IMG/VR virus record: IMGVR_UViG_3300020045_014749
Coordinates: 1-33,784 of that record
DNA length: 33,784 bases
Reading direction: 5' to 3' (one strand)
From: a virus
Taxonomy: Duplodnaviria > Caudoviricetes
This document shows, piece by piece, positions 1-30,022 of the stretch (position 1 is its first letter; each line of letters opens with the position of its first letter). Under the pieces are notes generated by a model. The model made no database searches, had not been told where the DNA came from, and saw only the letters and a list, made by a program, of their open reading frames with translations. The translations under genes were made by a program, and so were the position numbers.

Positions 1-576
1 GCGGTTCAAAAAATAATCGATTGGTGCGGAAAGCCTCCAGCCGGTCAAAATCCAACGAAGGATATTAAAGACGTGCTCTCAGCGCTTGCTGTTTTTTCTG
101 CAACCCTGGTACCAGAAACACAACCTGCCTTGATTGAAACGGTCACCAGCGCGGCGGATTTATACACGCGCGATGAAACCAAACTGCTCACCGCCGGATT
201 CATCCTGGTCAGATACGACCGGGAAGCAAAAACAGTCCAGCGTACCTCCGCCAACTCCGCGGCGGGTTGGGCTCCGGCCGTATTATTCAATACCTACGCG
301 GCAGCGGAAAAGACCCTCAAGGATATGTTGAAAATCGACACCATTATCGAAGTCTCCCTGGAGGGCAAGGCCAACCTTACGACCTGCCGCCGGAAGCTGC
401 TTGCAGCTGGATTCGATTTTTATCGCTCCGAAGGTGTTATCCCTGGCCACGGCACTGTTCCGCGGATCAAGCAGGGGAGTAGTAATTGGTCAACCTGGGG
501 AAAATACGAACAACTATATGAACTGAAAAACGCCTGGGATGAGTTGATGACGGATGATAAGGCGCTGGAGGGGTAA
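1..576 (+). CDS. Hypothetical phage protein, 5'-truncated by the window
   Basis: The frame of ORF 73..576 is open back to base 1; no recognised motif. Confidence 0.6.
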   Translation, partial: AVQKIIDWCGKPPAGQNPTKDIKDVLSALAVFSATLVPETQPALIETVTSAADLYTRDETKLLTAGFILVRYDREAKTVQRTSANSAAGWAPAVLFNTYAAAEKTLKDMLKIDTIIEVSLEGKANLTTCRRKLLAAGFDFYRSEGVIPGHGTVPRIKQGSSNWSTWGKYEQLYELKNAWDELMTDDKALEG

Positions 577-578
577 TC

Positions 579-803
579 ATGGCCTGGATGAATATCACCT
601 GCAAGTGCGGACATACCGCTGATATCGATGATTTTTGCCGGACGCTGCTTTTCGGAGAGCTGCCGAAAGGGCAATTTCAGTGCCCCGGTTGTGGGGAAGC
701 GTGGAAGCGCGTGGAGAGTGAACATAGTATACTGCGGCACGGATCAGCGGCAACCATCATCGCCGGTCGGGTGGAGCTGGTGATGGTGGATAGTAGGTTT
801 TAA
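579..803 (+). CDS. Small Zn-ribbon protein
   Basis: CKCGH and CPGCG motifs; RBS GGAGGGG; its stop TAA lies in the 14-bp att core at 801. Confidence 0.7.
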   Translation: MAWMNITCKCGHTADIDDFCRTLLFGELPKGQFQCPGCGEAWKRVESEHSILRHGSAATIIAGRVELVMVDSRF

Positions 804-814
804 CTACTGATTAT
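801..814 (-). other. Second copy of the attI core (truncated attI-like site closing the array)
   Basis: TAACTACTGATTAT is identical to 2668-2681; the minus strand reads ATAATCAGTAG/TTAAAAC. Confidence 0.75.
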
Positions 815-833
815 ATTTCGTAGGAGCGTGGAT

Positions 834-1004
834 ATGCTAGTAAAAATCAATCAGACGGTGGCAGTCCTGACAATAGTAATGTGGTTTTCCGTGACCATGA
901 ACCCCAACGAGTCCCGAATATGGGTGATGGCTCCGACTATGTGCCTACTAGCTGTATCCTTCGCCACGCTGATAATCACAACTCTAATCAGGATATGGAG
1001 ATAG
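834..1004 (+). CDS. Small membrane protein (56 aa), distal cassette gene 1
   Basis: Not in the ORF track. AGGAG RBS then ATG 834: MLVKINQTVAVLTIVMWFSVTMNPNESRIWVMAPTMCLLAVSFATLIITTLIRIWR, with two hydrophobic segments. Confidence 0.6.
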   Translation: MLVKINQTVAVLTIVMWFSVTMNPNESRIWVMAPTMCLLAVSFATLIITTLIRIWR

Positions 1005-1009
1005 TCATA

Positions 1010-1264
1010 ATGAGACAGACATTTGAAAACTGGTATTCAGATGGTGGCAAATTCCCGCGAGCAATTGAGCGCGATGGCGAGGGGTACAGGCTGAAACATG
1101 CTCATGATTCGTGGACATCGTGGAAAGTAGCTGCCGCAATAACCGCCGCGAGCTGCGCTGAAATTGCCAAAACATGGGCGAACAAGACCACGGATAATGT
1201 CAATCGGGCGCGGTATCTCGAAATAGAGAAAGCAATCAAGGGGAAATTTGGCTTAGAACTATAA
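1010..1264 (+). CDS. Hypothetical protein (84 aa), distal cassette gene 2
   Basis: GGAG RBS before ATG 1010 (MRQTFENWY...); its stop TAA is part of the attC R box. Confidence 0.7.
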   Translation: MRQTFENWYSDGGKFPRAIERDGEGYRLKHAHDSWTSWKVAAAITAASCAEIAKTWANKTTDNVNRARYLEIEKAIKGKFGLEL

Positions 1265-1321
1265 CGACTAAGCGCACCGGCAAGCGGAGCGCAGACCGTG
1301 TGCCGCGACTGGTTACAAATC
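1256..1321 (-). other. attC recombination site
   Basis: Minus strand: TTGTAAC-CAGTC-GCG[G]CAC[A]CGG...CCGGTGCGC-TTAGTC-GTTATAG. It has 5/6-nt spacers and two extrahelical bases in the first arm, the canonical attC geometry. Confidence 0.85.
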
Positions 1322-1354
1322 GGTAGCGGCCACGAAGATAAAAAAGGGGGCATC

Positions 1355-1633
1355 ATGAGTCAAAGGGGTGAAGATTGGAAAGCGTTTGCAGAACAGGTAA
1401 ACAGCCACATTGAGGAATACACCGTTCCGCAGTATGGCGACAAGGGCGAAGATCAGGCCAGCGAGTACGGTTCTGCCGAGCACGTCTTGCAGGCGAAACG
1501 CTATCTTGCCCGGTATGGCAAGAACAGTAGACCGGGGCAGGAAGTGCTTGACCTGATAAAAACTGCCCATTACTGCCAGATGGCGGCAATGGAACTAACA
1601 AAAGAACTGGAGGCCGGAAATGTTACTTGTTAA
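1355..1633 (+). CDS. Hypothetical protein, possibly DUF3310/T7 gp1.7-like (middle cassette gene 1)
   Basis: RBS AAGGGGG before ATG 1355; KRYLARYGKN...DLIKTAHY resembles the KY-x2-R-x-G-x-K...DL-x-KA-x2-Y pattern. Confidence 0.5.
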   Translation: MSQRGEDWKAFAEQVNSHIEEYTVPQYGDKGEDQASEYGSAEHVLQAKRYLARYGKNSRPGQEVLDLIKTAHYCQMAAMELTKELEAGNVTC

Positions 1634-2270
1634 ACCTTCTGCGGAAATACTGGCGGTTAGCCTCAGCGCCTTGCAACTGATTGAATACGCTGGCCGGACT
1701 TGCTACAAGAGCGAGGACAAAATCACTGAGGACAGCGCCCCGATTTTCGCGGCCATGATCCTGAAACGTGGTCATGAATCGGTTGTTGAGCACGCTTCCG
1801 CCACTGTCCGCTTTATCTGCGACCGGGGCGTGACACATGAGATCGTTCGTCATCGTCTGGCCAGCTACAGTCAGGAGAGCACGCGGTATTGCGATTACAA
1901 GGGCGGGCATGTCTCGTACATCATTCCACCCTGGACCAGCTACACCGAAGGCGAGTACACGAACGATACTCATATTCTGACCGGCGACTTTGCGGAAACC
2001 ATGTGGGCGAAAAACTGCCTTGAGATTGAGCAGCTTTACCGGAATCTGCGGGAAGCGGGATGGAAGCCGGAACAAGCCCGGTCTGTGCTGCCGAACAGCC
2101 TGAAAACTGAAATTGTGATGACGGCAAATCTCCGCGAATGGCGGCACTTCTTCAAGCTCCGCACATCTGCGGCGGCGCATCCTCAAATGAGGGAAGTGGC
2201 AACGCCGCTACTTCTGGCAATGAAAGGGCGCGTTCCGGTTTTGTTTGACGATCTGGCAAGAGATTTGTAA
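1620..2270 (+). CDS. thyX: FAD-dependent thymidylate synthase (middle cassette gene 2)
   Basis: GHESVVEH, RHRLASYSQESTRY (ThyX motif), EQARSVLP, NLREWRHFFKLR, AHPQMR. Confidence 0.96.
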   Translation: MLLVKPSAEILAVSLSALQLIEYAGRTCYKSEDKITEDSAPIFAAMILKRGHESVVEHASATVRFICDRGVTHEIVRHRLASYSQESTRYCDYKGGHVSYIIPPWTSYTEGEYTNDTHILTGDFAETMWAKNCLEIEQLYRNLREAGWKPEQARSVLPNSLKTEIVMTANLREWRHFFKLRTSAAAHPQMREVATPLLLAMKGRVPVLFDDLARDL

Positions 2271-2318
2271 CGGGCCGCTGGTGTGCGGCTTGTCCGCACC
2301 GGCAGCTTGTTATGATGC
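2262..2318 (-). other. attC recombination site
   Basis: Minus strand: TCATAAC-AAGCT-GCCGGTGCGG-ACAAG-CCGCACACCAGC-GGCCC-GTTACAA, an imperfect hairpin bounded by AAC/GTT; bulge pattern less canonical than at 1256-1321. Confidence 0.78.
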
Positions 2319-2342
2319 GTCGGTGCCACGGAGGGACGAGGG

Positions 2343-2657
2343 ATGAACCCAACACAGAAACCAGATCGACCTTGGCTGGAATACCCTATCGGTACAAAAG
2401 CATTCGCTATCAACGGCGGTCACTGGACAAAAACGGCGCGAGGGTGGAAATGGTGTACTGGTGCAACTTTTCCGACTCCGGGCGGTGACGCCTATCGGGT
2501 TCAGTTGCCGGACGAGGGAACGGTGCAAAACGGTGTCGTTTCGAGGCAAGTTGAGTGTACCGGATGTGGCCAAGAGTTTGAGGATTTGCATCTGGTCGGA
2601 GAAACACCGGATGACATGCCGTGGTGCGATGGCTGCATAAGCACGATGGAGCCATAG
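2343..2657 (+). CDS. Hypothetical protein with C-terminal CxxC...CxxC (attI-proximal cassette)
   Basis: RBS GGAGG/GAGG; Trp-rich N-terminus; CTGC and CDGC. Confidence 0.65.
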   Translation: MNPTQKPDRPWLEYPIGTKAFAINGGHWTKTARGWKWCTGATFPTPGGDAYRVQLPDEGTVQNGVVSRQVECTGCGQEFEDLHLVGETPDDMPWCDGCISTMEP

Positions 2658-2661
2658 GGAA

Positions 2662-2705
2662 GCATCATAACTACTGATTATCCCGCAACATTGCGTCTTA
2701 TCACG
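2662..2705 (-). other. attI site
   Basis: Minus strand GGGATAATCAGTAG/TTATGAT has TAA-N7-TTA spacing as in attI1 and lies about 40 bp before the intI start. Direct repeat TTATCCCG (2678) / TTATCACG (2698) may be an accessory binding site. Confidence 0.78.
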
Positions 2706-2719
2706 AAAGGAGGTTGGTC

Positions 2720-3805
2720 ATGGGAAGTCGTTGGAGTCAAAAACATTTTACTGCAAAAAGTCCCGATAACGCTCCGATCAAATCAAGCAAATTGACCGAT
2801 TTTGATGCATTGTTGCAAGCGATGCACCGTGAGATCCGCCTGGAACATCTGGCCACAAGTACGGAAGATTCATATTGTGGCTACGTGGCAGAATTTCTGG
2901 ATTTCAAAGTCAAGCGGCATTCGATGTTGACCGATGAAGCCGCTATCCGTGAATTTTTAACCTATGCCGCCATGGAAAAGCATGTTGCCGCTTCAACCCA
3001 AAATGTCATGCTGAATGCCCTTCTCTATTTCTACGGCAAAATTCTGCATCACGACGTGGGTTTGATCGATGCGCCGCGGGCCCGGAAACCGAAACGCATT
3101 CCCGTGGTGTTTTCTGAAGATGAGGTAAAACGAATCTTGGCCGAATTGTCGAATCCGTACCTATTGGCGGCAGACCTCATGTACGGCGACGGATTGCGCG
3201 TCGAAGTGGATTGTCTGACCCTTCGCGTCAAGGATATTGATTTCGGCCAGGAGATGATCATATTGCAGGCAAGCAAGGCTCTGAACGCTCGTACCCTGCC
3301 ATTGCCGAAACACGATATCGAGCCGTTACGCGCCCAGCTCGAACATGCCAAACGATTATGGGAACGCGACCTGACAGATGGGTGGGGCGCGGTGTATATG
3401 CCGGATGCCCTCGCGATAAAATATCCGAACGCGGCAAAGTCGTGGGCGTGGCAATGGGTATTTCCGGCTGGATCCCGGTGGGTGGACAAGAAAACCGGCC
3501 AGCAAGGCCGTTGGCATCTCGATGTGTCATTGATGCAAAAAGCGTTTAAGGCGGCAATGACCCGGGCTCAAATCTACAAACATGCGGGACCGCATTCCCT
3601 GCGCCATTCGTTTTGCACTCATTTGATCGAGGCCGGTGAGGATGTCAGATTTATCCAGGAGTTGATGGGACACCGGGAGTTGAAAACAACGCAAGGCTAC
3701 GCACATGTTGCCAAGACCCACTTCCGGAAATTGGTGACGCCGATTGATCGCCTGTTCGGCCTGGGTGGTACAATCTGCCCTCATTGCGGCGGGGCCTTGG
3801 CATGA
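2720..3805 (+). CDS. intI: Integron integrase (IntI-type tyrosine recombinase)
   Basis: AAAGGAGG RBS; VAASTQNVMLNALLYFY; R (GLRVE), K, HSLRH, LMGH, TTQGY; IntI-specific insertion WERDLTDGWGAVYMPDALAIKYPNAAKSWAWQWVFP. Confidence 0.92.
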   Translation: MGSRWSQKHFTAKSPDNAPIKSSKLTDFDALLQAMHREIRLEHLATSTEDSYCGYVAEFLDFKVKRHSMLTDEAAIREFLTYAAMEKHVAASTQNVMLNALLYFYGKILHHDVGLIDAPRARKPKRIPVVFSEDEVKRILAELSNPYLLAADLMYGDGLRVEVDCLTLRVKDIDFGQEMIILQASKALNARTLPLPKHDIEPLRAQLEHAKRLWERDLTDGWGAVYMPDALAIKYPNAAKSWAWQWVFPAGSRWVDKKTGQQGRWHLDVSLMQKAFKAAMTRAQIYKHAGPHSLRHSFCTHLIEAGEDVRFIQELMGHRELKTTQGYAHVAKTHFRKLVTPIDRLFGLGGTICPHCGGALA

Positions 3806-4503
3806 CCACCCCCGAAACCGACATAACCGCCACCCTAGACCAGGAAGAACAGCGCCTCCTCGCACATCGTGATGGCTGCCTGGATCTGGCCAAGCGCAAA
3901 CCGACCGGCGCCAACCTCAAGAGCCTGAAAAAGGCCGAAGCCCTCCTGGGTGACTTCCGATCGGCGCGCTATGAAACCTCCGGCGAAACCACCTTCGCCT
4001 CACTGATGGATGTCGTCACTCACCTGGATACCGCCGGGTGGAAGATCAGCAAGAGCTCCGCCTATGAGCATAAGGACGAAGGCAAGATCCGCCCCGGCGT
4101 TGATGGCAAATACACCCTGTCCGCCGTCCAGGAATACGCCCGGCAACATCTGCAGCGCAAAGACGGCAGCAGCCCGACCACCGCCAACCTGCAGGAAGAT
4201 AAACTACGCGGCCATATCCGGCAGATATCCGCCGATGCCGAAATGCGCGAACTCAAACTGCAGGAACGCCGCGGCGAACTGATCCCCCGCGAGCATGTCG
4301 AGGTTGAACTTGCCGCCCGTGCCGGCGATCTCAAGACGCACCTGGACGCCTCCGCCCGCAGCTCCGCCACCCGCATCATCAAACTGGTGGGGGGCGATGT
4401 CCAGAAAGCCCCCGAGCTGATCGGCTTCCTGCTCGGCATCAACCGCAAAGTGATGGACAACTATTCCCGGCCGATACAGGGGCCGGATGAGGAGGAAGAG
4501 TGA
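3802..4503 (+). CDS. Terminase small subunit (Nu1-like)
   Basis: HTH-like segment, coiled coil with ELKLQERRGELIPREHV; upstream of the large subunit; ATGA overlap with intI. Confidence 0.75.
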   Translation: MTTPETDITATLDQEEQRLLAHRDGCLDLAKRKPTGANLKSLKKAEALLGDFRSARYETSGETTFASLMDVVTHLDTAGWKISKSSAYEHKDEGKIRPGVDGKYTLSAVQEYARQHLQRKDGSSPTTANLQEDKLRGHIRQISADAEMRELKLQERRGELIPREHVEVELAARAGDLKTHLDASARSSATRIIKLVGGDVQKAPELIGFLLGINRKVMDNYSRPIQGPDEEEE

Positions 4504-4712
4504 TTATAGTAAAAACGCTTAAATATCCGGACCGTGTTGCCAAGTTTATCGAGATCCAAGCGTTCGATTCTATTTTTCGGGTTAGTGTCTGGTCCCGCTT
4601 TTCGCTTTTACCGTGGGAATGGGTTGCTTTCCGTAATTCATTTCCCAATATTCCTTTTTGTGGTTGGCAACTCGATATTTTGTGTTTTTCTGTGGCCAGA
4701 AAACTAAATTAA
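4500..4712 (+). CDS. AT-rich small hypothetical protein (moron-like)
   Basis: GTGA overlap with the terS stop; fills the gap to terL; visibly AT-richer than its neighbours. Confidence 0.5.
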   Translation: MIIVKTLKYPDRVAKFIEIQAFDSIFRVSVWSRFSLLPWEWVAFRNSFPNIPFCGWQLDILCFSVARKLN

Positions 4713-4714
4713 CA

Positions 4715-6661
4715 ATGCCTGCCACCGCCCATGACATAGCTGTCGATTACTCCTGGCTCCCCCCCGCCCCTCCGCGCAGCTATCGCCTCTACCCCGGCGA
4801 GCTCCTGGCCTATCGCGCCGGCAGCGGCAAGGTCGGCAGCGCCTGGGCGCAAGGCAACCGTTATGTCCATGTCTCACCGCTCCCCGGCCCGTGGGATAAC
4901 GACGTCGCCCCGCACCTGGTCGATATCATGGACACCTTCAGCCGGGAGGATTTCCAGCACGGCACCATCTGCGGCGGCTCCCAGGGGGGCAAAACCGATG
5001 TGCTGCACAACTGCCTCGGCACGGTCTCCAACGAGGCCCCCGGCCCGGCGCTGCTGGTCATGCAGGACCAGGCCACCGGGGGCGACACCATTACCGACCG
5101 CCTGATTCCAATGTTCCGGGATACTCCCTCCCTGCGCAAGCTGCGGACCAAAAACCCGGATGACATGGGCAAGCAGCGGATCCGCCTCAAAAACGGCATG
5201 ACGATCTACCTCGCCTGGTCAAACTCCGAAGGGCGTCTGGCCTCAAAACCGGTCCGCTACCTGATCCGGGATGAAATCGACCTCTGGCCGCTGTCCGCCC
5301 TCAAAAAATCATGGGCCCGCACCCGGGCGTACAAACACTCCCGCAAGATCATGGACGCCTGCACCGCCTCCACCGTGGACGGCCCCGTCTGGAAAGCGCA
5401 GTTCCACGCCCAGGAAGTGCGCGAATTCTACGCCGTCTGTCCCCATTGCGGCCACGAGCAAACCCTCAAATTCTCCGGCATCCGCTGGGCCGACGGCGTT
5501 GTCGATCCGCAGGCGCTCTCGAACAGCGGTTCCGCCTGGTATGAGTGCGAAGAGTGCCAGGGCAAATGGGACGAAGACGATCGGGACGACGCCGTCCTGG
5601 CCGGCAGCAAGCGTAATCAGAAAGGGTGGAAGCGCCGTGACGACAAGATCGTCCACCTGCGCCCCTCCTCGGTCTGGTGGCACGTCCCGCCGATGCTGTC
5701 GCAGTTCGTTTTCTTCAACGAGATCGCCCAGGCGTATCTGCTCACCCTCAGCGAGCCGACCGTCGAAAACCTGCGCTATTTCTACAACGACTGCCTCGGT
5801 CTCCCGCTGCCGGAAGATGCCGAGGGCGAAACCATCAAAGAAAAGGACCTCTATGAGCGCCGCGAGTATTACTCCCCCAAAGATGAACCGGCAAAGTGGC
5901 GCGTTCCGATGCAGGCCTGCGTCATCACCGCCGATGCCGACGTGCAAAGCAACCGCCTGGAATGCGAGGTCGTTGCCTGGGGTCCTGGCCATGAATCGTG
6001 GGGCATTGAATACAAGGTTTTCCACGGCGACACCACAAAGGACGAGGTATGGGACCAGCTGCACGACTGGGCGTCATCGATCACCTGGCGACATGAGTCC
6101 GGCGCCGAACTGCCGATCGCAAAAATGGGCGTTGACCTCGGCTACCGCTCCGACATGGTTGCCCGGTTCGTGCGCCGGTCCCGTCGCTACCTGGCGCACA
6201 AAGGCTCCAATAACAGCAGTGCCCCGCTAGTCCCGCGCAAGCCGAGCAGGAGCCCGAAATACAAGGTCGCGTTTTACGAGCTGGGCGTTTCCAGCGGCAA
6301 GGACAGTCTCTTCACCTGGTTAAACAATGAGCCGGGCGGGGCGCGATCGTGCCACTTCCCCATGTTTTTCGGGTACGACTTCGAATACTTCCGCATGCTC
6401 TGTGCTGAGCACGCCGTCAAAGAGAAGAACCGCCGGACGGGCAAGATGGAAACCGTCTGGAAGATCCGCCCCGGCTTCATCCGCAATGAGGCCCTGGACG
6501 TGAGAGTCGGCAACATGGCGGTGAGGGAGATACTGAATCCGAATTATGAAGTCAGAAGCAAAGAACTGCTCAGTCAGGCCCAATACAAGGCCCTTGGCCA
6601 AACCGTCCCGCAACCGAAAAAAACACGCAGAATATACAGCCAGGGGGTATCAGGTGAGTAA
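4715..6661 (+). CDS. Terminase large subunit, lambda GpA family
   Basis: Walker A-like GGSQGGKT, Walker B IRDEID, CPHCG...CEEC, ADVQSNRLE, VDLGY, RNEALDVRVG. Confidence 0.93.
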   Translation: MPATAHDIAVDYSWLPPAPPRSYRLYPGELLAYRAGSGKVGSAWAQGNRYVHVSPLPGPWDNDVAPHLVDIMDTFSREDFQHGTICGGSQGGKTDVLHNCLGTVSNEAPGPALLVMQDQATGGDTITDRLIPMFRDTPSLRKLRTKNPDDMGKQRIRLKNGMTIYLAWSNSEGRLASKPVRYLIRDEIDLWPLSALKKSWARTRAYKHSRKIMDACTASTVDGPVWKAQFHAQEVREFYAVCPHCGHEQTLKFSGIRWADGVVDPQALSNSGSAWYECEECQGKWDEDDRDDAVLAGSKRNQKGWKRRDDKIVHLRPSSVWWHVPPMLSQFVFFNEIAQAYLLTLSEPTVENLRYFYNDCLGLPLPEDAEGETIKEKDLYERREYYSPKDEPAKWRVPMQACVITADADVQSNRLECEVVAWGPGHESWGIEYKVFHGDTTKDEVWDQLHDWASSITWRHESGAELPIAKMGVDLGYRSDMVARFVRRSRRYLAHKGSNNSSAPLVPRKPSRSPKYKVAFYELGVSSGKDSLFTWLNNEPGGARSCHFPMFFGYDFEYFRMLCAEHAVKEKNRRTGKMETVWKIRPGFIRNEALDVRVGNMAVREILNPNYEVRSKELLSQAQYKALGQTVPQPKKTRRIYSQGVSGE

Positions 6662-6938
6662 TAAACAAGCGGAAAAAATCAGCAGGGGCGACATTGAGGC
6701 GCTGAAAAGAACTATCATCCTGGCCAACACACTGTTCCGCCCGCCCCGTGCCGCGGAGCTGCTCCAGATATCGGTCCGGACGCTTTACCGCCTGGATGAA
6801 GAGGGGCATATCCGGTCACAGCCGCTGCGTCCCGGCCAGATGAAGGGAAAGCGCTACTCGCTCCAGGCGATCGAAGATTACCGCCGCCTGGTATTGGGAG
6901 ACGACTTCGCCCCACTCGATCTCCCTTTGAATATCTAG
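6654..6938 (+). CDS. Winged-helix/excisionase-like DNA-binding protein, candidate late activator
   Basis: FRPPRAAELLQISVRTLYRLDEEGHI (HTH_17-like); GTG start overlapping the terL end. Confidence 0.75.
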   Translation: MSNKQAEKISRGDIEALKRTIILANTLFRPPRAAELLQISVRTLYRLDEEGHIRSQPLRPGQMKGKRYSLQAIEDYRRLVLGDDFAPLDLPLNI

Positions 6939-6980
6939 CCACTATATTTAGTGCAAACTATTTTCAAAACCACAACATTT

Positions 6981-7043
6981 TGTGTCAGAATGCGTCAGAA
7001 TGTGCCAGAAGTGATTCCCGCCCCATAAAATACCCTCTATAAT
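6981..7043 (+). promoter_or_regulatory. Probable late promoter with three 10-bp direct repeats
   Basis: TGTGTCAGAA-TGCGTCAGAA-TGTGCCAGAA (6981-7010), TATAAT at 7038-7043, no good -35. Confidence 0.6.
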
Positions 7044-7061
7044 CCCGGCCATAATTAAAAC

Positions 7062-7086
7062 GTAGGGGCGCGGTCTTGACCCGCCC
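7062..7086 (+). repeat. GTAG-type REP-like palindrome, copy 1
   Basis: GTAGGGGCGCGGTCTTGACCCGCCC. Confidence 0.65.
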
Positions 7087-7099
7087 GCCGAGGTTTTAC

Positions 7100-7318
7100 A
7101 TGGCCGGGATTGATCTCACAACCGCACAAGCAAAACTCGACCAATACCTCGCCGCAGAGACCAAAGTCCTTGCCGGCCAAAAAATCGAGATTGACGGCAC
7201 CGTATTCACCCGTGCTGATCTGGCGGCAATCCAGAACGGCATAACCATCTGGAACAAGCGCGTGCAGCAGGCCTCCCGTGGTTGCATCCCGGTCCGTCGC
7301 CTGCAGGTGATGGATTGA
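7100..7318 (+). CDS. Head-to-tail joining protein (gpW-like)
   Basis: Small ORF before the portal; YLAAETKVLAGQKIEIDG...TRADL. Confidence 0.8.
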   Translation: MAGIDLTTAQAKLDQYLAAETKVLAGQKIEIDGTVFTRADLAAIQNGITIWNKRVQQASRGCIPVRRLQVMD

Positions 7319-8943
7319 AACCCTTTTCCTTGCGCATAGGCCGCGAGACGGTCGTGATCGAACCGACCCTAGCCGATCGCGTCGTCAACTATTTCAGCCC
7401 GGAGCGGGGCGTCCACCGTATGCGCGCCCGTGCCCAGATGGCAATTGTCGGCGGCTACACCGGCGCCCGGCGCGACCGCAAACAGACCTCCTCCTGGAAC
7501 CCCGGAGACGGCGACGCCGATTCGGTAATCCTTTATGATCTGCCCGAACTGCGTGACCGCTCCCGCGACCTGGAGCGCAATTCACCCATTGCCGCCGGCG
7601 CCATCAACACCAAGGTCACCAACGTAGTCGGTACCGGCCTCAAGCCCCGCGCCGCGATTGACCGCGAAATTCTTTCCGGCCTCACTGAAGAACAGGCCGA
7701 TGCCTGGGAGCGGATGGCGGAAGCGGAGTTCCGGCTGGCCACGTCCGGCAAAACGTTCGATGTCGAGCACCAGTTCAGCTTTTACCAGTCACAGGATATC
7801 GTCTTTCGCTCCATGTTGTCGGCGGGAGACACCTTCGTCAATCTGCCCCGCATCCCTCGCCCGGGGAATCCCTACACCCTCCGGACAAATTTTATCGAAG
7901 CGGACCGCGTCTGCAATCCCAATTCACGGGCCGACACGGCAACCATGGTGGCCGGTGTCGAAAAAGACAGCCACGGCGCCCCGGTAAAATACCATATTGC
8001 CAAGTTCCACCCCGGCAATCTCCGCTATACCAAAAAACGGGAATGGATGGAACTGAAAGCCGTTGACTCTGAAGGCCGCCGTCTGGTGCTGCACGTCTAT
8101 CGCAAACGGCGGATCGGTCAGACCCGTGGCGTGCCCGACCTCGCCCCGGTGGTCGAGCTGATCAAGCAGTTCAGCACCTACACCGACAACGAAATCCAGG
8201 CCGCCGTGGTTTCCTCGCTGCTCACCGTGGTTGTCAAGTCCAGCAACCCGAACCCCGAACTGGTTGACCAGGACGAAAAAGCCAAGGAACGGATTGACAC
8301 GGAGGGGATCAAGCTCGGCTCCGGATCCGTCATCGGGCTCTGGCCGGATGAGGATATCAGTATTGTCGATCCGAAGCGGCCCAACGTCGCCGCCCAGGCG
8401 TTTCTGCACGCCATGGCCGAACAGATCGGCGTGGCAATCGAGATGCCCTTTGAGATCCTGGTCAAACATTTCACATCGTCATACTCCGCCGCGCAGGCCG
8501 CCCTGCTGGAGTTCTGGCGCTACGTCCTTTCCTGCCGTTTCTGGCTGGCCGCCGATTACTGCCAGCCGATCTGGGAACTGGTGATTACCGAAGCCGTCGC
8601 CCTGGGGCGGCTGCCCGCGCCCGGCTTCCTCAATGATCCGCTGATCCGCATGGCGTACCTCGGCTGTGAATGGGTTGGCGATGCCCGCGGGCACATCGAT
8701 GAAAACAAGGCAGTCACCGCCGCCGCCAAACGGGTCGCCGAAGGATTCTCCACCAAGGCGAGGGAAACATCCGGCCTTACCGGCGGCGATTGGGAGCGCG
8801 ACGAAAAACAGCGGACCAAGGAACAGAAAATCGAGGGTCCGCGTGTTGCCGCAACGGTGCGGGCCGAAACACCACCGGCGCCGGAACCGTCAGCCGCGGA
8901 TCTCGACGCCGCCGATAATGCCAACAAGGAGGATGCTCCATAA
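7315..8943 (+). CDS. Portal protein, lambda family
   Basis: LRDRSRDLERNS, VVGTGL, IEADR, RIGQTRGVP, SSYSAAQAALLE; TTG start inferred from the overlap with the upstream stop. Confidence 0.93.
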   Translation: MKPFSLRIGRETVVIEPTLADRVVNYFSPERGVHRMRARAQMAIVGGYTGARRDRKQTSSWNPGDGDADSVILYDLPELRDRSRDLERNSPIAAGAINTKVTNVVGTGLKPRAAIDREILSGLTEEQADAWERMAEAEFRLATSGKTFDVEHQFSFYQSQDIVFRSMLSAGDTFVNLPRIPRPGNPYTLRTNFIEADRVCNPNSRADTATMVAGVEKDSHGAPVKYHIAKFHPGNLRYTKKREWMELKAVDSEGRRLVLHVYRKRRIGQTRGVPDLAPVVELIKQFSTYTDNEIQAAVVSSLLTVVVKSSNPNPELVDQDEKAKERIDTEGIKLGSGSVIGLWPDEDISIVDPKRPNVAAQAFLHAMAEQIGVAIEMPFEILVKHFTSSYSAAQAALLEFWRYVLSCRFWLAADYCQPIWELVITEAVALGRLPAPGFLNDPLIRMAYLGCEWVGDARGHIDENKAVTAAAKRVAEGFSTKARETSGLTGGDWERDEKQRTKEQKIEGPRVAATVRAETPPAPEPSAADLDAADNANKEDAP

Positions 8944-10418
8944 TGCGAAACATGCGCGTTGCCGAACTGCTCTTCAACCGCCCGTTGATGATCGCGGAAT
9001 CAAAACTGAACGTCATCCTGCACGCCCTCGGCCCCCGTTTCAACCTGGACCTGGCCTCGATACCGGTGCAGGAGGCCGCCGTATTATCGGACCAGGACCG
9101 CGCCCGCTCCGGATACTACGTCCGCGACGGCGTTGCCGTGGTCGGCATCTACGGCCCGCTGCTGCATCGCGTCATGGCATCCGATTACCCCAGCGGCGGC
9201 CCGACAACGTACGGTGAGATCCGCAAGTCATTCGACACCGCCCTTGCCGATGACGGCGTCCGTTCGGTGTTGCTCGATATCGACTCCTGCGGCGGTGAGG
9301 TGTGCGGCGTATTCGACCTGGCCGACCATATCTATCAGTCCCGCGCCCTGAAACCGATCACCGCCGTCTGCAACGAATCGGCCTACAGCGCGGCTTATCT
9401 GCTGGCCAGCTCGGCCGGTCGGATCATCGTGCCACGCACCGGCGGCGCCGGGTCGATCGGCGTTGTCGCCACTCATGTCGATTTCTCCCGGGCGGAAGAC
9501 AGCGCGGGCATAACCGTCACCCATATTTATGCCGGGGCCCGCAAGGTCATGGGCACTCCGCACCAGCCGCTGTCCAGTGATGCCTTCAACGAAATCCAGG
9601 CCGGCGTGATGGAGACATACGACCTGTTCGTATCGACCGTGGCCCGCAACCGTGGTGTTGCGGAAAGCGTTGTGCGCAACACGGAAGCCGGCTGTTTTGT
9701 CGGCAAAAAAGCGGTTGCCATCGGCCTGGCCGATGAAGTCGCCCCGGCAGACCATGCCATTCAGATCGCCCGTAAGGGGGGTAATAAGCAACACCACAAA
9801 ATGTCAGCCGTAACAGCGGCGACGGAAAAGGAGGAAACGATGAATAAGGAAACACTGAAGGAGAATCACCCCGCCCTTTACCAGTCCATTCTGGATGAAG
9901 GCAGGACCTCCACCACTGCCGCTGCTATGGGTGGCGGTGGTCCCATGTGTGCAACATGCTCGTGCAAGGATTGCGAAGGGGGCGATTGCACCACATGCAC
10001 CAAGAACCCGCACGAAGCCGCCGCATTCAACCGTGGGGCGACTGCGGAGCGGGCGCGTATCCAGGGTGTCGAAGCATCCTGCATGCCCGGCCACGAAAAG
10101 CTGATTGCCGAACTGAAGTTCGACGGTAAAACCACCGCCGGAGAAGCGGCACTGCAGATCATCGGCGCGGAAAACCAGCTGCGCGCCGGGGCGCTGTCAG
10201 CGCTGAAAGGTGAGGCAAACGCTGTAGTTGCAGGTGTTGAAACCAGCGCAACCGGCGAGGTAACCGACGTTACCGAAGCAACCGGCACCATCGAAGAGCA
10301 GGCCAAAGCCGAATGGGATAAATCGCCCGAACTGGCTCAGGAGTTCCGTAACTTTGACGGCTACCTGGCCTATCGCAAAGCCTCAGCGGCCGGTACCGCC
10401 AAGGTGCTCAAAAAATAA
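8943..10418 (+). CDS. S49 prohead protease (gpC-like) with C-terminal scaffold
   Basis: LDIDSCGG, AYSAAY, GSIGVV, GLADEV. Confidence 0.92.
   Translation: MRNMRVAELLFNRPLMIAESKLNVILHALGPRFNLDLASIPVQEAAVLSDQDRARSGYYVRDGVAVVGIYGPLLHRVMASDYPSGGPTTYGEIRKSFDTALADDGVRSVLLDIDSCGGEVCGVFDLADHIYQSRALKPITAVCNESAYSAAYLLASSAGRIIVPRTGGAGSIGVVATHVDFSRAEDSAGITVTHIYAGARKVMGTPHQPLSSDAFNEIQAGVMETYDLFVSTVARNRGVAESVVRNTEAGCFVGKKAVAIGLADEVAPADHAIQIARKGGNKQHHKMSAVTAATEKEETMNKETLKENHPALYQSILDEGRTSTTAAAMGGGGPMCATCSCKDCEGGDCTTCTKNPHEAAAFNRGATAERARIQGVEASCMPGHEKLIAELKFDGKTTAGEAALQIIGAENQLRAGALSALKGEANAVVAGVETSATGEVTDVTEATGTIEEQAKAEWDKSPELAQEFRNFDGYLAYRKASAAGTAKVLKK
9840..10418 (+). CDS. Nested in-frame scaffold protein (Nu3-like)
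   Basis: Strong internal RBS AAGGAGG before in-frame ATG 9840; AERARIQGV motif. Confidence 0.7.
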   Translation: MNKETLKENHPALYQSILDEGRTSTTAAAMGGGGPMCATCSCKDCEGGDCTTCTKNPHEAAAFNRGATAERARIQGVEASCMPGHEKLIAELKFDGKTTAGEAALQIIGAENQLRAGALSALKGEANAVVAGVETSATGEVTDVTEATGTIEEQAKAEWDKSPELAQEFRNFDGYLAYRKASAAGTAKVLKK

Positions 10419-26920: not shown

Positions 26921-26951
26921 TCCCCTTTAGCTCAGTTGGTAGAGCAGGTGA
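26921..26951 (+). tRNA. tRNA 5'-half fragment (Asn-like), probable attP homology; not a complete tRNA
   Basis: TCCCCTT-TA-GCTC-AGTTGGTA-GAGC-A-GGTGA = acceptor strand, D arm and 5' anticodon stem, then divergence. Asn is inferred from the TCC start; the anticodon is absent. Confidence 0.8.
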
Positions 26952-27002: not shown

Positions 27003-28493
27003 CTATTTATCGAGGCGTTTCCCGCGATGTGCTGCCGGCAGGTTGATTTTTGCGGTGGTGGTGCCGTCCGGTCGGCGGGGGAATTTATACGTGACGACGG
27101 CGTGCATGTTGTAGATATCGATGCGGTCGATGATCAGCCGCAAAAATTCGCGCTGGTTGATTGTGTCCAGGAAGGTGAATTCTTCTCTGGTCAGGTCGAT
27201 ACTGCTCCAGTCGGGAGGATTGTGGATGTGGCCCACGATTTCATCCCGCTGCCGTTCCAGCGTCTCGATTCTGGTCTTGATTTCAGCCATGGCCTCTTTG
27301 GCGTCAGCCAGATCCATTACGCCGTTGGTGATGGCGCTGATAAGCCGGGCTTTCTTTTCCTGCGCTTTTTTGATTTCCGCGCTGTTATCCTTCAGCTCCT
27401 CCCCGCTGTTCCTCCTGGTCTGCTGATCATCCCAAATCTGTTTCAATTCTTCCAGGTCGTCAAGGGTGTTGAATACGTTCGTTATCACCGCGCTGTTGAC
27501 CACGTCCTGGGCGATCAGCCGGGCGCGTTCACATTTCTTGCGGGTGTCCTTGTTTTGGCAGCCGTAGTAGTTGATGCAGGTGCCGTCGGTCCGCGCTCTG
27601 GTATTTGTCCAGGTTTTGACGGTGCGTCCGCAGTAGCCGCAGAACATCAATTGCAGATTTGAAAGCAAGGCGGCAAATTCTTTCCTCACGCCGTTTTTGT
27701 TGTTGGTCCGGATGCGTCTGCTGCCCCGGATGCGTTTGGCCTGTTCTGCGGTCATCACCGGTTCCCAGTCGCATGCTATCGGTTCGCCTGTCTGCTGATC
27801 CGTTCGTAGCGCCTGATAAAACAACAGGCGGTCATCGGCCAGGCTCCGGCGGATGAATATTTCCGGTTTGCCGATTTCGAGTGCGATCGCCCTGGCGGAC
27901 ATGGTTTCGGTCATGGTCCAGATCTGCTCCATCTGTTTCAACAGGCCCTTGTCTACCACCGGCCGCCCCTGGGTTTTGTCGAGGACATAGGGCGGGGGGC
28001 AGCCGCCGCCGAGAAACTTCCCGGTTCGGTATGCTTCGTCCCGCCCCTCTTTCATTCTCCCCTGCAGCACCTTCATTTCGACCGAAGAGAAGCCCCCCTC
28101 CATCAGCAGCAGCATCCAGTCGCTGTGTTGCGCCGGGTCGAGGATCCGCGACATGGTGGCCAGTTTGACGCGGTGATCGGCGCAGAGGGTCAGCCAGGCG
28201 ATATAGTCCTGCATGGTATCGTCACGGGAGAGGCGGGACAGTTCGATGGTGAGGATGATGTTGACGCGCCCGGCGCGGATGTCGGTCTCGAGACGGGCGC
28301 GTTCCTTCAGGCTTTCGGTTTTGCCCTGGGCGGCGGAGGCGTGGCCGTCGTCATAGATGGTGGCGTGCCATCCCTGGACGGCGGCATGGGCCGGCAGTTG
28401 TTCGCGCTGGACGGTGAGGCGCTGGGAGGGTTTGTCCTTGTCCTCGCGGGATTTGCGGATGTAGATGGCGCACCGTGGCTGATTAAGGGTCAT
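27003..28493 (-). CDS. Large serine recombinase (phage integrase)
   Basis: AIYIRKS catalytic Ser, ELSRLSRD, recombinase domain, CGYCG...YYGC...C Zn ribbon, coiled coil. Confidence 0.93.
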   Translation of the reverse strand: MTLNQPRCAIYIRKSREDKDKPSQRLTVQREQLPAHAAVQGWHATIYDDGHASAAQGKTESLKERARLETDIRAGRVNIILTIELSRLSRDDTMQDYIAWLTLCADHRVKLATMSRILDPAQHSDWMLLLMEGGFSSVEMKVLQGRMKEGRDEAYRTGKFLGGGCPPPYVLDKTQGRPVVDKGLLKQMEQIWTMTETMSARAIALEIGKPEIFIRRSLADDRLLFYQALRTDQQTGEPIACDWEPVMTAEQAKRIRGSRRIRTNNKNGVRKEFAALLSNLQLMFCGYCGRTVKTWTNTRARTDGTCINYYGCQNKDTRKKCERARLIAQDVVNSAVITNVFNTLDDLEELKQIWDDQQTRRNSGEELKDNSAEIKKAQEKKARLISAITNGVMDLADAKEAMAEIKTRIETLERQRDEIVGHIHNPPDWSSIDLTREEFTFLDTINQREFLRLIIDRIDIYNMHAVVTYKFPRRPDGTTTAKINLPAAHRGKRLDK

Positions 28494-28494
28494 T

Positions 28495-29307
28495 TTAATA
28501 TCTGGCAAAGTCCGTTACTGTCCATTGGGTGATGGAGTCGTATTCGGATGTTGTCAGTGGCTCACCGAAGCTCACCCCGTAACCGAGCGATTGTCCCCCG
28601 TTGATGGCCGTATTGAGATCGCGGGAAAAAACTAGGGTGTCGGTTGCCGTAAGGGCGTTGACAGTCCAATGGAAGTTGATCCGGGTGGAAGAAAGGTTCT
28701 GAAACTGGAATCGTGTGGTGAAGTTCACTTTGTCGGCGGTTCTGAAATTTTCTACAGGCTCTATGTTGAGCAGTTGGACCGCGCCTGACGTCTCAGTGGC
28801 AATCGGTATGACCGGCGGTTGCTGCGGCTCTTCTGGCGTTGTGACTGGCTCAGCGGGCGGGTTTACCGGTTCTGCTTGTTGTAATGATATAAGCCCTACG
28901 GATTGTACCGTCCATGTTTCCGCTTGATATAGCAGTATGGCTGTAAACTGCTGCTGCTGATTGACGACTCGTGTTTCACCTGGCTGCACGGTTGTGGTTA
29001 TTACCGGGGCCAGCACTTCCAGGTTGTAGCGGTCGCGCCCGGAAAGGGTGACGCTAATCTCCTGCGGCGAAGTGCCGGAGTTGGTGATAGTGATACCGAA
29101 GTCAAGAGTGACGGTCTCTATCGATCGGGAAACCCCGGTGATTGTAAGCTCGGACGCCTGAATGCCTGTGGCCTGATCCGCGACAACCATCGCAACTTTA
29201 ACCGGTTTGGCGAAGTAGTCTAAGGTTTGCGTGGTAGCAACCGATGCGCTGCTGGATCCGCAAGCGGAAAGGAATAAACAAGCAGAAAGCAAAATGAAAT
29301 ATTTCAT
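28495..29307 (-). CDS. Lipoprotein (possible superinfection exclusion)
   Basis: GGGAGG RBS; MKYFILLSACLFLSAC lipobox; two beta-rich domains with a Pro-rich linker. Confidence 0.75.
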   Translation of the reverse strand: MKYFILLSACLFLSACGSSSASVATTQTLDYFAKPVKVAMVVADQATGIQASELTITGVSRSIETVTLDFGITITNSGTSPQEISVTLSGRDRYNLEVLAPVITTTVQPGETRVVNQQQQFTAILLYQAETWTVQSVGLISLQQAEPVNPPAEPVTTPEEPQQPPVIPIATETSGAVQLLNIEPVENFRTADKVNFTTRFQFQNLSSTRINFHWTVNALTATDTLVFSRDLNTAINGGQSLGYGVSFGEPLTTSEYDSITQWTVTDFARY

Positions 29308-29326
29308 ATGAACCTCCCAACTATCA

Positions 29327-30022
29327 TTAAATGAATTCTCCATCAAACTTACAAATTTCTTTTCTTATGAATCGTCTTATATCTTCTTTGTCTGGGTTAT
29401 TTGAAGAGTTGCGGGTCCAAACATCTTTCAACGGATTGTATCCATATTTGATGCCGTTGTAATAAATGTCCATCCACACACCATTCCCATCATTGAAATC
29501 ATTTAAACCTATTTCCGTAAAGACGGCGGCAGGAGCATCGTCTATTAAAATCATATACCTCATGTCTTTAGCAATAAAGCCTCTGCCGTTTAAGTCCAGT
29601 TTTTCAATCTCTTGTTGAAAGACCGAATAATATAAAAATATTTCTGGGTCTTGTATTATTGTTTTTATTAAATGTTTGCAAAATCTACGAGGGTCGGTGA
29701 CATCAAAGGTAGACCTCGAACTTATAAAATCAGGGCAACTGCACGTAAGGGTATTCTTGTCGACAAAGTATTTATGTGCAGGATTAGTAAAGCTTTCGAC
29801 TGTGACGATTTCATGATTTATATCTATTGAATTAGTCTCCGGGCGGGCTTGATACAAGGTATTGTTGAGAGGTTGCTGTGGCATATTTCCTGCCACTTTC
29901 ATGATTGCGCCACAAACACACATACATATGAGTGCGCCGAGACCTCCCCATAAAAGGGCTCCAATTCCAGCACCAAGTATAACAGCCGCTATAAAATAGA
30001 AAACATTCATATAACCTGCCAT
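29327..30022 (-). CDS. Membrane-anchored SWIM zinc-finger protein
   Basis: N-terminal TM hairpin; TCSCPDF...FCKH; AT-rich. Confidence 0.7.
   Translation of the reverse strand: MAGYMNVFYFIAAVILGAGIGALLWGGLGALICMCVCGAIMKVAGNMPQQPLNNTLYQARPETNSIDINHEIVTVESFTNPAHKYFVDKNTLTCSCPDFISSRSTFDVTDPRRFCKHLIKTIIQDPEIFLYYSVFQQEIEKLDLNGRGFIAKDMRYMILIDDAPAAVFTEIGLNDFNDGNGVWMDIYYNGIKYGYNPLKDVWTRNSSNNPDKEDIRRFIRKEICKFDGEFI

Follow-up and report, generated by a model that had tools for sequence, protein, structure and literature searches.

Integrons are regarded as devices of bacteria that phages acquire now and then. A survey of 10,705 phage genomes reported three complete integrons, one lone intI and 17 clusters of attC sites lacking integron integrases (CALINs), and in the part of that report considered here the three complete elements are host-type, namely a Vibrio chromosomal integron, a class 1 integron and a Shewanella integron (PMC9892861). 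We analyzed a 33,784-bp stretch of DNA (IMG/VR virus record IMGVR_UViG_3300020045_014749, Caudoviricetes; “the window” denotes this whole stretch), a partial genome of a temperate tailed phage in which profile searches identified terL, portal, protease, capsid, amidase, holin and repressor-like genes. Positions 801 to 3805 hold a real and complete integron that is resident in the phage, carries its cassette genes inverted relative to attC, includes a unit bounded by attI-type sites, and encodes an integrase predicted to be active. The original prediction for this locus had described integrons as typically chromosomal or borne by plasmids and transposons; that generalization needs qualification, since phage integrons were already in print (PMC9892861, same part of the report) and the element described here is phage-resident. 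We assign a probability of roughly 80% to the reading that this integron, located in the accessory region of the phage, captures and swaps accessory genes built back-to-front to attC, for reading by rightward phage transcription. That reading builds on an intact IntI, an attI upstream of it, two attC cassettes, turnover at AAC borders, and genes lying on the intI strand.

The gene at 2720–3805 (+ strand) encodes an intact integron integrase of 361 aa, for which recombinase activity is predicted. The protein scored 337.6 bits against TIGR02249 (cutoff 265), and both tree and alignment placed it among the IntIs, which answers the check proposed with the original prediction. The claim that all catalytic residues and the integron-integrase insertion are present also held: R160, K186, H292, R295, H318 and Y327 are kept and are invariant across 17 close homologues, and the IntI-specific insertion (I2/patch III) aligns with those of IntI1, Vibrio IntI, Shewanella IntI and PDB 2A3V, while being missing from the outgroup phage integrase in the same alignment. 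IntI bears the motif GLRVEVDCL, characteristic of the clade described below, and a C-terminal CPHCG. The latter (window 3776–3790) is invariant at the C-terminus of the 17 closest IntIs, does not occur in IntI1 or Vibrio IntI, and is possibly a zinc-binding half-site.

The attI site (2662–2684) comprises an R box, a crossover AA|C at 2670/2671, the spacer TACTG and the L box ATTATCCC. It lies 51 bp before intI, with only 35 bp between the L box and the intI start codon, and was assigned by comparison with locus L001, whose IntI is 84% identical, whose DNA identity with the window begins at the attI core, and whose upstream array is unrelated. Across the clade the attI motif lies 49–86 bp, mostly 50 bp, upstream of intI. 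Upstream of attI are two attC hairpins. The first, attC-1 (1256–1321), has the + strand as its bottom strand and forms 9/9 stem pairs with an extra C and an extra T on the 3′ arm; the second, attC-2 (2262–2318, +), is short and degenerate, and similar hairpins occur in L009 and L115. In circle form their folding z-scores were −3.6 and −5.6, respectively. The predicted arrangement of an attI-like core and two attC hairpins before intI was thus seen, to which we add a second attI core: the core TAACTACTGATTAT is present at both 801 and 2668, and a 14-mer repeat alone occurred in 7 of 500 dinucleotide shuffles of 701–2720.

The proximal cassette (400 bp, 2271–2670, +) contains one open reading frame (ORF) of 104 aa (2343–2657), for which a Pfam-type profile search gave only a sub-threshold zinc-ribbon match; its ends, GTTATGATGC at 2309 and GCATCATAAC at 2662, match at 10/10 positions. 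The middle cassette (1006 bp, 1265–2270, +) contains a SaV/DUF3310-like gene at 1355–1633 (Atlas 0.95 to SaV-like and DUF3310 clusters) followed by thyX at 1620–2270 (TIGR02170, above cutoff), whose stop codon lies within the recombination box; its ends, GTTACAAATC at 1312 and GATTTGTAAC at 2262, also match 10/10. A distal unit of 461 bp (804–1264, +) has ends that match 8/9 (TTATATTTC at 811, GAACTATAA at 1256). All motifs and end matches quoted in the original prediction were found in place. A scan of both strands of the window for folded AAC...GTT sites whose GTT arm matches the next AAC 10/10 returned only the two attC cassettes; two such cassettes arose in none of 500 dinucleotide shuffles of 701–2720 and one arose in three. 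Of the attC scanners, the first two failed to detect one or both of the window sites, both of which fell below the threshold of the first strict scan.

The most distinctive trait of this integron is the inversion of its genes relative to attC. In the canonical layout, in which the gene lies on the attC top strand and is followed by its own attC, cassettes are arranged inversely to those of the window (PMC5027507, in the part considered). Here each attC hairpin precedes its own gene and travels with it, and the genes run toward intI on the intI-coding strand, which is the attC bottom strand. In the controls, published integrons of Vibrio and Shewanella phages, 17 of 18 sites carried the extra base on the 3′ arm (read on the intI-coding strand), and the longest ORF ran opposite to the intI strand in 12 of 13 intervals, agreeing with annotation. 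Of 28 chained cassettes at clade loci, 25 carried their longest ORF on the intI strand and two on the opposite one, and ORFs of at least 40 aa stopping in the box numbered 18 on the intI strand vs. 3. Counted by locus over the 47 loci with a cassette chain, within and outside the clade, the longest ORF favored the intI strand in 34, with seven against (including two Vibrio-type arrays) and six ties. End-matched cassette chains were present upstream of intI at 47 of 71 loci, compared with 12 of 392 downstream control windows in which the chain walker gave false positives; it also mis-called L002, L009 and one L034 interval.

Evidence independent of the bulge came from array boundaries. Arrays open with a hairpin and close at attI; cassettes common to L094/L096 and to L026/L112 start at AAC plus hairpin, and those common to L017/L020 and to the window and L123 stop at the next AAC. 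Together these boundaries place the crossover at AA|C on the + strand, with the gene downstream of its hairpin, and cassettes shared among other phages thereby back independently the cut that had been proposed for the window. A cut at G|TT on the + strand, which would yield gene-then-attC cassettes, was ruled out because arrays are hairpin-first and attI-last and shared cassettes carry the upstream hairpin.

Comparison with related phages revealed turnover between conserved flanks. The phage at L121 shares 72% DNA identity with the window over the left flank and 81% over terS–terL, and its array consists of three end-matched cassettes (570, 447 and 740 bp) plus attI. L123 has both flanks in common with the window and carries four end-matched cassettes and a terminal hairpin. 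Despite these common flanks (72–81% DNA), both arrays differ entirely from that of the window. The L123 thyX is 82% identical to the window's, with an alignment that ends at window 2271, the AAC crossover, and the ends of the two thyX cassettes differ in step (GTTAC../..GTAAC in the window vs. GTTAT../..ATAAC); thyX occupies a cassette position in L018 as well. The suggested search for relatives varying between the 579–803 gene and intI or terS therefore found what it looked for, namely different cassettes with borders at AAC. An empty site, with the 579 gene joined straight to terS, was not found among the four distinct contigs returned. L122 likewise has an array before terS. In the arrays of L123 (4517–4560) and L122 (1444–1495) the last element is a bare attC hairpin that runs straight into the terS leader, the pattern expected had a deletion starting at the second attC box removed attI and intI.

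The clade to which the IntI of the window belongs comprises 69 clusters, among the best 120 listed in a protein search, and is marked by an insertion of one residue (GLRxxVDCL). A DNA pattern for this clade covers 64 of the 69 clusters and none of the 51 others; it matched 14 IMG/VR loci, 19 metagenome loci on contigs that in part coincide with these, and only one of 185,579 bacterial and archaeal genomes, in which it lay on a 33.6-kb contig with a terminase. Downstream of intI, terL, portal or primase genes were present in 17 of the 19 clade loci scanned, and the clade is phage-associated, occurring almost only beside terminase, portal or primase genes. A broader scan kept the best 80 of 561 confirmed viral loci. 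The TIGR02249 cutoff was passed by 59 of 60 integrases scanned (60 of 82 non-redundant intact ORFs). A scan with the attI pattern returned 12 loci, four of which had been collected previously and two of which were new clade loci (L131 and L138); the remaining six, without intI or array, were taken as chance matches. In a FastTree phylogeny the window and L001 were sisters (0.99) inside the clade (0.97–0.99), with weak support at deep nodes; published phage IntIs fell outside the clade, and inverted arrays also appeared on other branches.

Several observations weigh against our reading. Gene orientation was called from ORF length without a gene finder, and the bulge-side call is model-dependent. 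With canonical spacers of 5–6 nt, the 49 candidate sites (from the clade and three close phages, a few of them false) split into 15 favoring the 3′ arm, 25 favoring the 5′ arm and 9 ties. Widening the spacers to 4–8 nt in both models gave 39 for the 3′ arm, 7 for the 5′ arm and 3 ties; the widening was symmetric but was chosen after seeing the data. The attC-2 site of the window is a tie. The tie and the narrow-model result would fit ordinary gene-then-attC cassettes inserted upside down by an integrase that prefers the attC top strand, a reaction known to invert cassettes in the laboratory (PMC5027507, in the part considered). We regard this explanation as improbable: the attC-1 bulge is on the 3′ arm as in the controls (9/9 pairs vs. 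5/9 for the 5′ arm), the widened model agrees for 39 of the 49 sites, the + strand fold is the more stable in 33 of the 49, and upstream sites in the wider viral set showed 103 3′ bulges vs. 11, with genes mostly on the same strand.

A further point against an active capture device is the state of intI in relatives. The gene in L121, which belongs to another sub-lineage, breaks off after ∼101 residues; in L138 it is internally deleted, and in L122 and L123 it is absent. Because such decay is common in the closest phages, they can do without the device, which may often be inactive. These four close or clade-related phages keep their arrays despite a lost or broken intI, as would be expected if the integron were real but mostly an inert platform, with array differences produced by host integrases or by mosaic recombination at shared hairpins; identical hairpins do recur in many phages and could act as short homologies. 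We think it quite improbable that this accounts for the window, however, given an intact intI whose six catalytic residues are invariant in its close homologues, a newest cassette that always abuts attI with matching ends, and homology that breaks at AAC and not inside hairpins.

The genome collection contains one genome per species, so host-chromosomal members of the clade could be missed. Even so, the remaining explanation, that the phage acquired a fragment of a host chromosomal integron in a single event and carries it as a passenger, as in Vibrio and Shewanella prophages, is largely refuted and very improbable: host-integron captures are published (PMC9892861, in the part considered) and L060 and L075 look captured (they group with Vibrio IntI and have canonical gene orientation), but profile and PHROG searches of the window proteins recognized no host genes around the integron, its IntI is not near a chromosomal IntI and no host array lies alongside, closely related phages carry different cassettes at this locus, the clade sits beside phage core genes and in a single terminase-bearing genome contig as described above, and the genes are inverted relative to published captured integrons.

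Under our preferred reading of an active phage-resident integron, established integron chemistry suggests that the IntI of this phage would carry out insertions at attI, recombining the attI R box, at AA|C, with the folded + strand of a circle that had been excised. New cassettes would enter beside intI and older ones would be pushed leftward. Cassettes, intI and terS are codirectional and separated by short gaps, and the cassette genes and intI each have a ribosome-binding site in front; a dedicated cassette promoter (Pc) may therefore not be needed. All three would be read by phage transcription, with integrase expression tied to phage gene expression, and the orientation of the captured genes probably places them under the virus's own promoters. 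Promoter-like sites at 1–4800 amounted to five weak matches against 4.0 expected, and one 9/12 match on the minus strand (2704–2677) would run antisense to the cassette genes. Regulation of intI by the SOS response through LexA is frequent among integrons, though not general. By eye, the ribosome-binding site and start codon seemingly lie inside the attC terminal loop in L062, L072, L078, L080, L085, L089 and L095.

The distal unit differs from the two attC cassettes. Cutting at AA|C had been predicted to give cassettes at 804–1264, 1265–2270 and 2271–2670; all three sets of coordinates were correct, but 804–1264 contains no attC hairpin, and its interpretation as a normal attC cassette was ruled out. 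The unit has two small ORFs (834–1004 and 1010–1264), neither with a Pfam, NCBIfam or PHROG match, and opens with an attI spacer where a hairpin would be. Its left end (801–819) is a second attI half-site, TAAC-TACTG-A, fused to the cassette leader TTATATTTC, making a hairpin-less hybrid simple site. The 16-nt leader after this spacer (arm plus ribosome-binding site) recurs in L007 and L138 directly past an attC hairpin plus G. L001 likewise has an attI-bounded unit, with ends that match 11/11, around a promoter, an ORF and a helix-turn-helix (HTH) gene; the homologous HTH cassettes of L009 and L122 are bounded by attC. Of 53 loci checked, only the window and L001, which are sister phages, showed the attI-spacer duplication. 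The distal unit probably began as an attC cassette whose hairpin was later lost. The attI L box may have recombined with the second box of a cassette attC, replacing the hairpin with the attI spacer, either through release and re-insertion of a circle with an attI-like site or through recombination between sister genomes; recombination between the L box and the second attC box is likely the simplest reading of this unit. IntI1 is described as cutting the attI1 top strand efficiently at the L box (PMC4792948, in the part considered).

The HTH cassette itself (L001, 3048–3587; L009, before attI; L122, ∼745–1446) consists of a strong sigma-70-like promoter, judged by eye, a variable ORF and the HTH gene. 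In L001 and L009 the cassette adjoins attI and might from there drive intI. Between L009 and L122 the copies show 81% identity but different ends, each self-complementary.

Individual hairpins and leaders precede many different genes. The attC-1 hairpin has 12 occurrences in 11 viral contigs, 11 of the copies having no more than 4 mismatches over 52 nt; 10 copies precede a same-strand ORF, and the N-terminal sequences of these ORFs are all different. The proximal-cassette leader similarly recurs before other genes in L112, L144 and L048. We tentatively suggest, as a possibility we consider less likely than its negation, that this lineage makes cassettes, with a few attC hairpins and leaders joined repeatedly to phage accessory genes, and that L-box activity yields hairpin-less attI-type circles. 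Cassette ORFs from other loci matched PHROGs in 33 of 74 cases (74 of 93 candidates given), including 10 DNA methyltransferases, four PAPS-reductase-like proteins and two HNH nucleases.

The element shares much with described systems. Like class 1 IntI1/attI1 and the Vibrio chromosomal integron (PDB 2A3V), it has the I2 insertion and an attI at the 5′ end of intI, and like classical integrons in general it has R and L boxes, extrahelical bases, the attC bottom strand on the intI-coding strand, and self-complementary cassette ends (runs of 8–12 in the controls too). Unlike in classical integrons, window genes lie downstream of their own hairpins and run toward intI, there is no Pc-like promoter above chance at 1–4800, and a hybrid attI-bounded unit is present. 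The 5′-arm spacer is often 7–8 nt (24 of 39 sites), compared with 5 nt in 15 of 17 control sites. With the phage integrons already described, in the part of that report considered, it has in common an IntI, attI and attC cassettes within tailed-phage genomes, and orphan methyltransferases as frequent cargo (PMC9892861). The IntIs of those integrons are 36–39% identical to that of the window and fall outside its clade, and their genes are canonically oriented, whereas the IntI clade of the window is phage-associated, its locus is conserved between phages and its genes are inverted. As in the inverted integron-integrase group (Treponema and others; Cury et al., 2016, PMC4889954, in the part considered), intI and the cassette genes are on the same strand. 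The window differs from that group in keeping the usual opposite orientation of intI and attC, with a bulge that, in the intI-coding strand, falls on the 3′ arm just as it does in the canonical controls, and in having the gene flipped inside the cassette.

We found no paper on a phage-native, gene-inverted integron lineage in the literature searched, which left out most subscription journals. Re-examination of three CALIN phages from that survey showed that TJE1 is canonical (two sites); the scan detected one site each in P12002L and ctTUS972 (L151, 30009–30053, and L152, 2073–2126, respectively), with genes on the bottom strand. Because both sites look gene-inverted, the inverted layout is probably already in the published data, with no comment on it in the text of PMC9892861 considered here. 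A second inverted layout is that of L117 (KX853513, Virus Rctr41k), at 4680–10095, which is absent from Tables 1, 2 and S1 of PMC9892861. There a gene annotated ‘xerD’ passes TIGR02249 with 383 bits, and four attC sites of ∼120 bp with end matches of 10–11 lie downstream of intI, with the annotated genes on the bottom strand.

If our reading is correct, a phage-resident lineage with conserved position, flipped cassettes and phage cargo would be a site-specific source of part of phage mosaicism, and phage integrons would explain rapid turnover of counter-defence genes, with orphan methyltransferases, thyX and PAPS-reductase-like genes as cargo. How cassettes are made is still listed as open in the parts of two reviews considered (PMC8618304; PMC4792948). 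The present locus touches on that question through one hairpin that precedes ten different genes and an attI-bounded unit that is a candidate intermediate; were cassette manufacture confirmed, these phages would offer a living system in which to study how cassettes are created de novo, and would supply the orphan attC arrays seen in other phages. The intact IntI and its natural sites make both the phage-integron and the cassette-origin questions testable in E. coli.

The integron lies between conserved phage genes. On the left is a small zinc-ribbon-like conserved gene (579–803, +; homologues 81% in L121 and 74% in L123), which terminates at the TAA of the distal recombination box; in L121 and L020, attC begins no more than 10 bp from the stop of its homologue. 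On the right, a terminase small subunit-like gene, terS (3802–4503, +; phrog_57, E 2.5e-12), overlaps the intI stop and is followed by terL and portal. Far outside the integron, the separate serine integrase that had been predicted was found as a large serine recombinase on the minus strand at 27003–28508 (Pfam Resolvase plus zinc ribbon), likely the lysogeny integrase. ARAGORN found no tRNA gene in the window, including at 26921–26946, just past the serine recombinase, a stretch that we take to resemble the 5′ half of a tRNA and that is possibly part of the attachment site. Between the serine recombinase and the repressor, two lower-GC genes on the minus strand (28495–30022) had no NCBIfam match for either and no Pfam match for the one scanned, and are possible morons.

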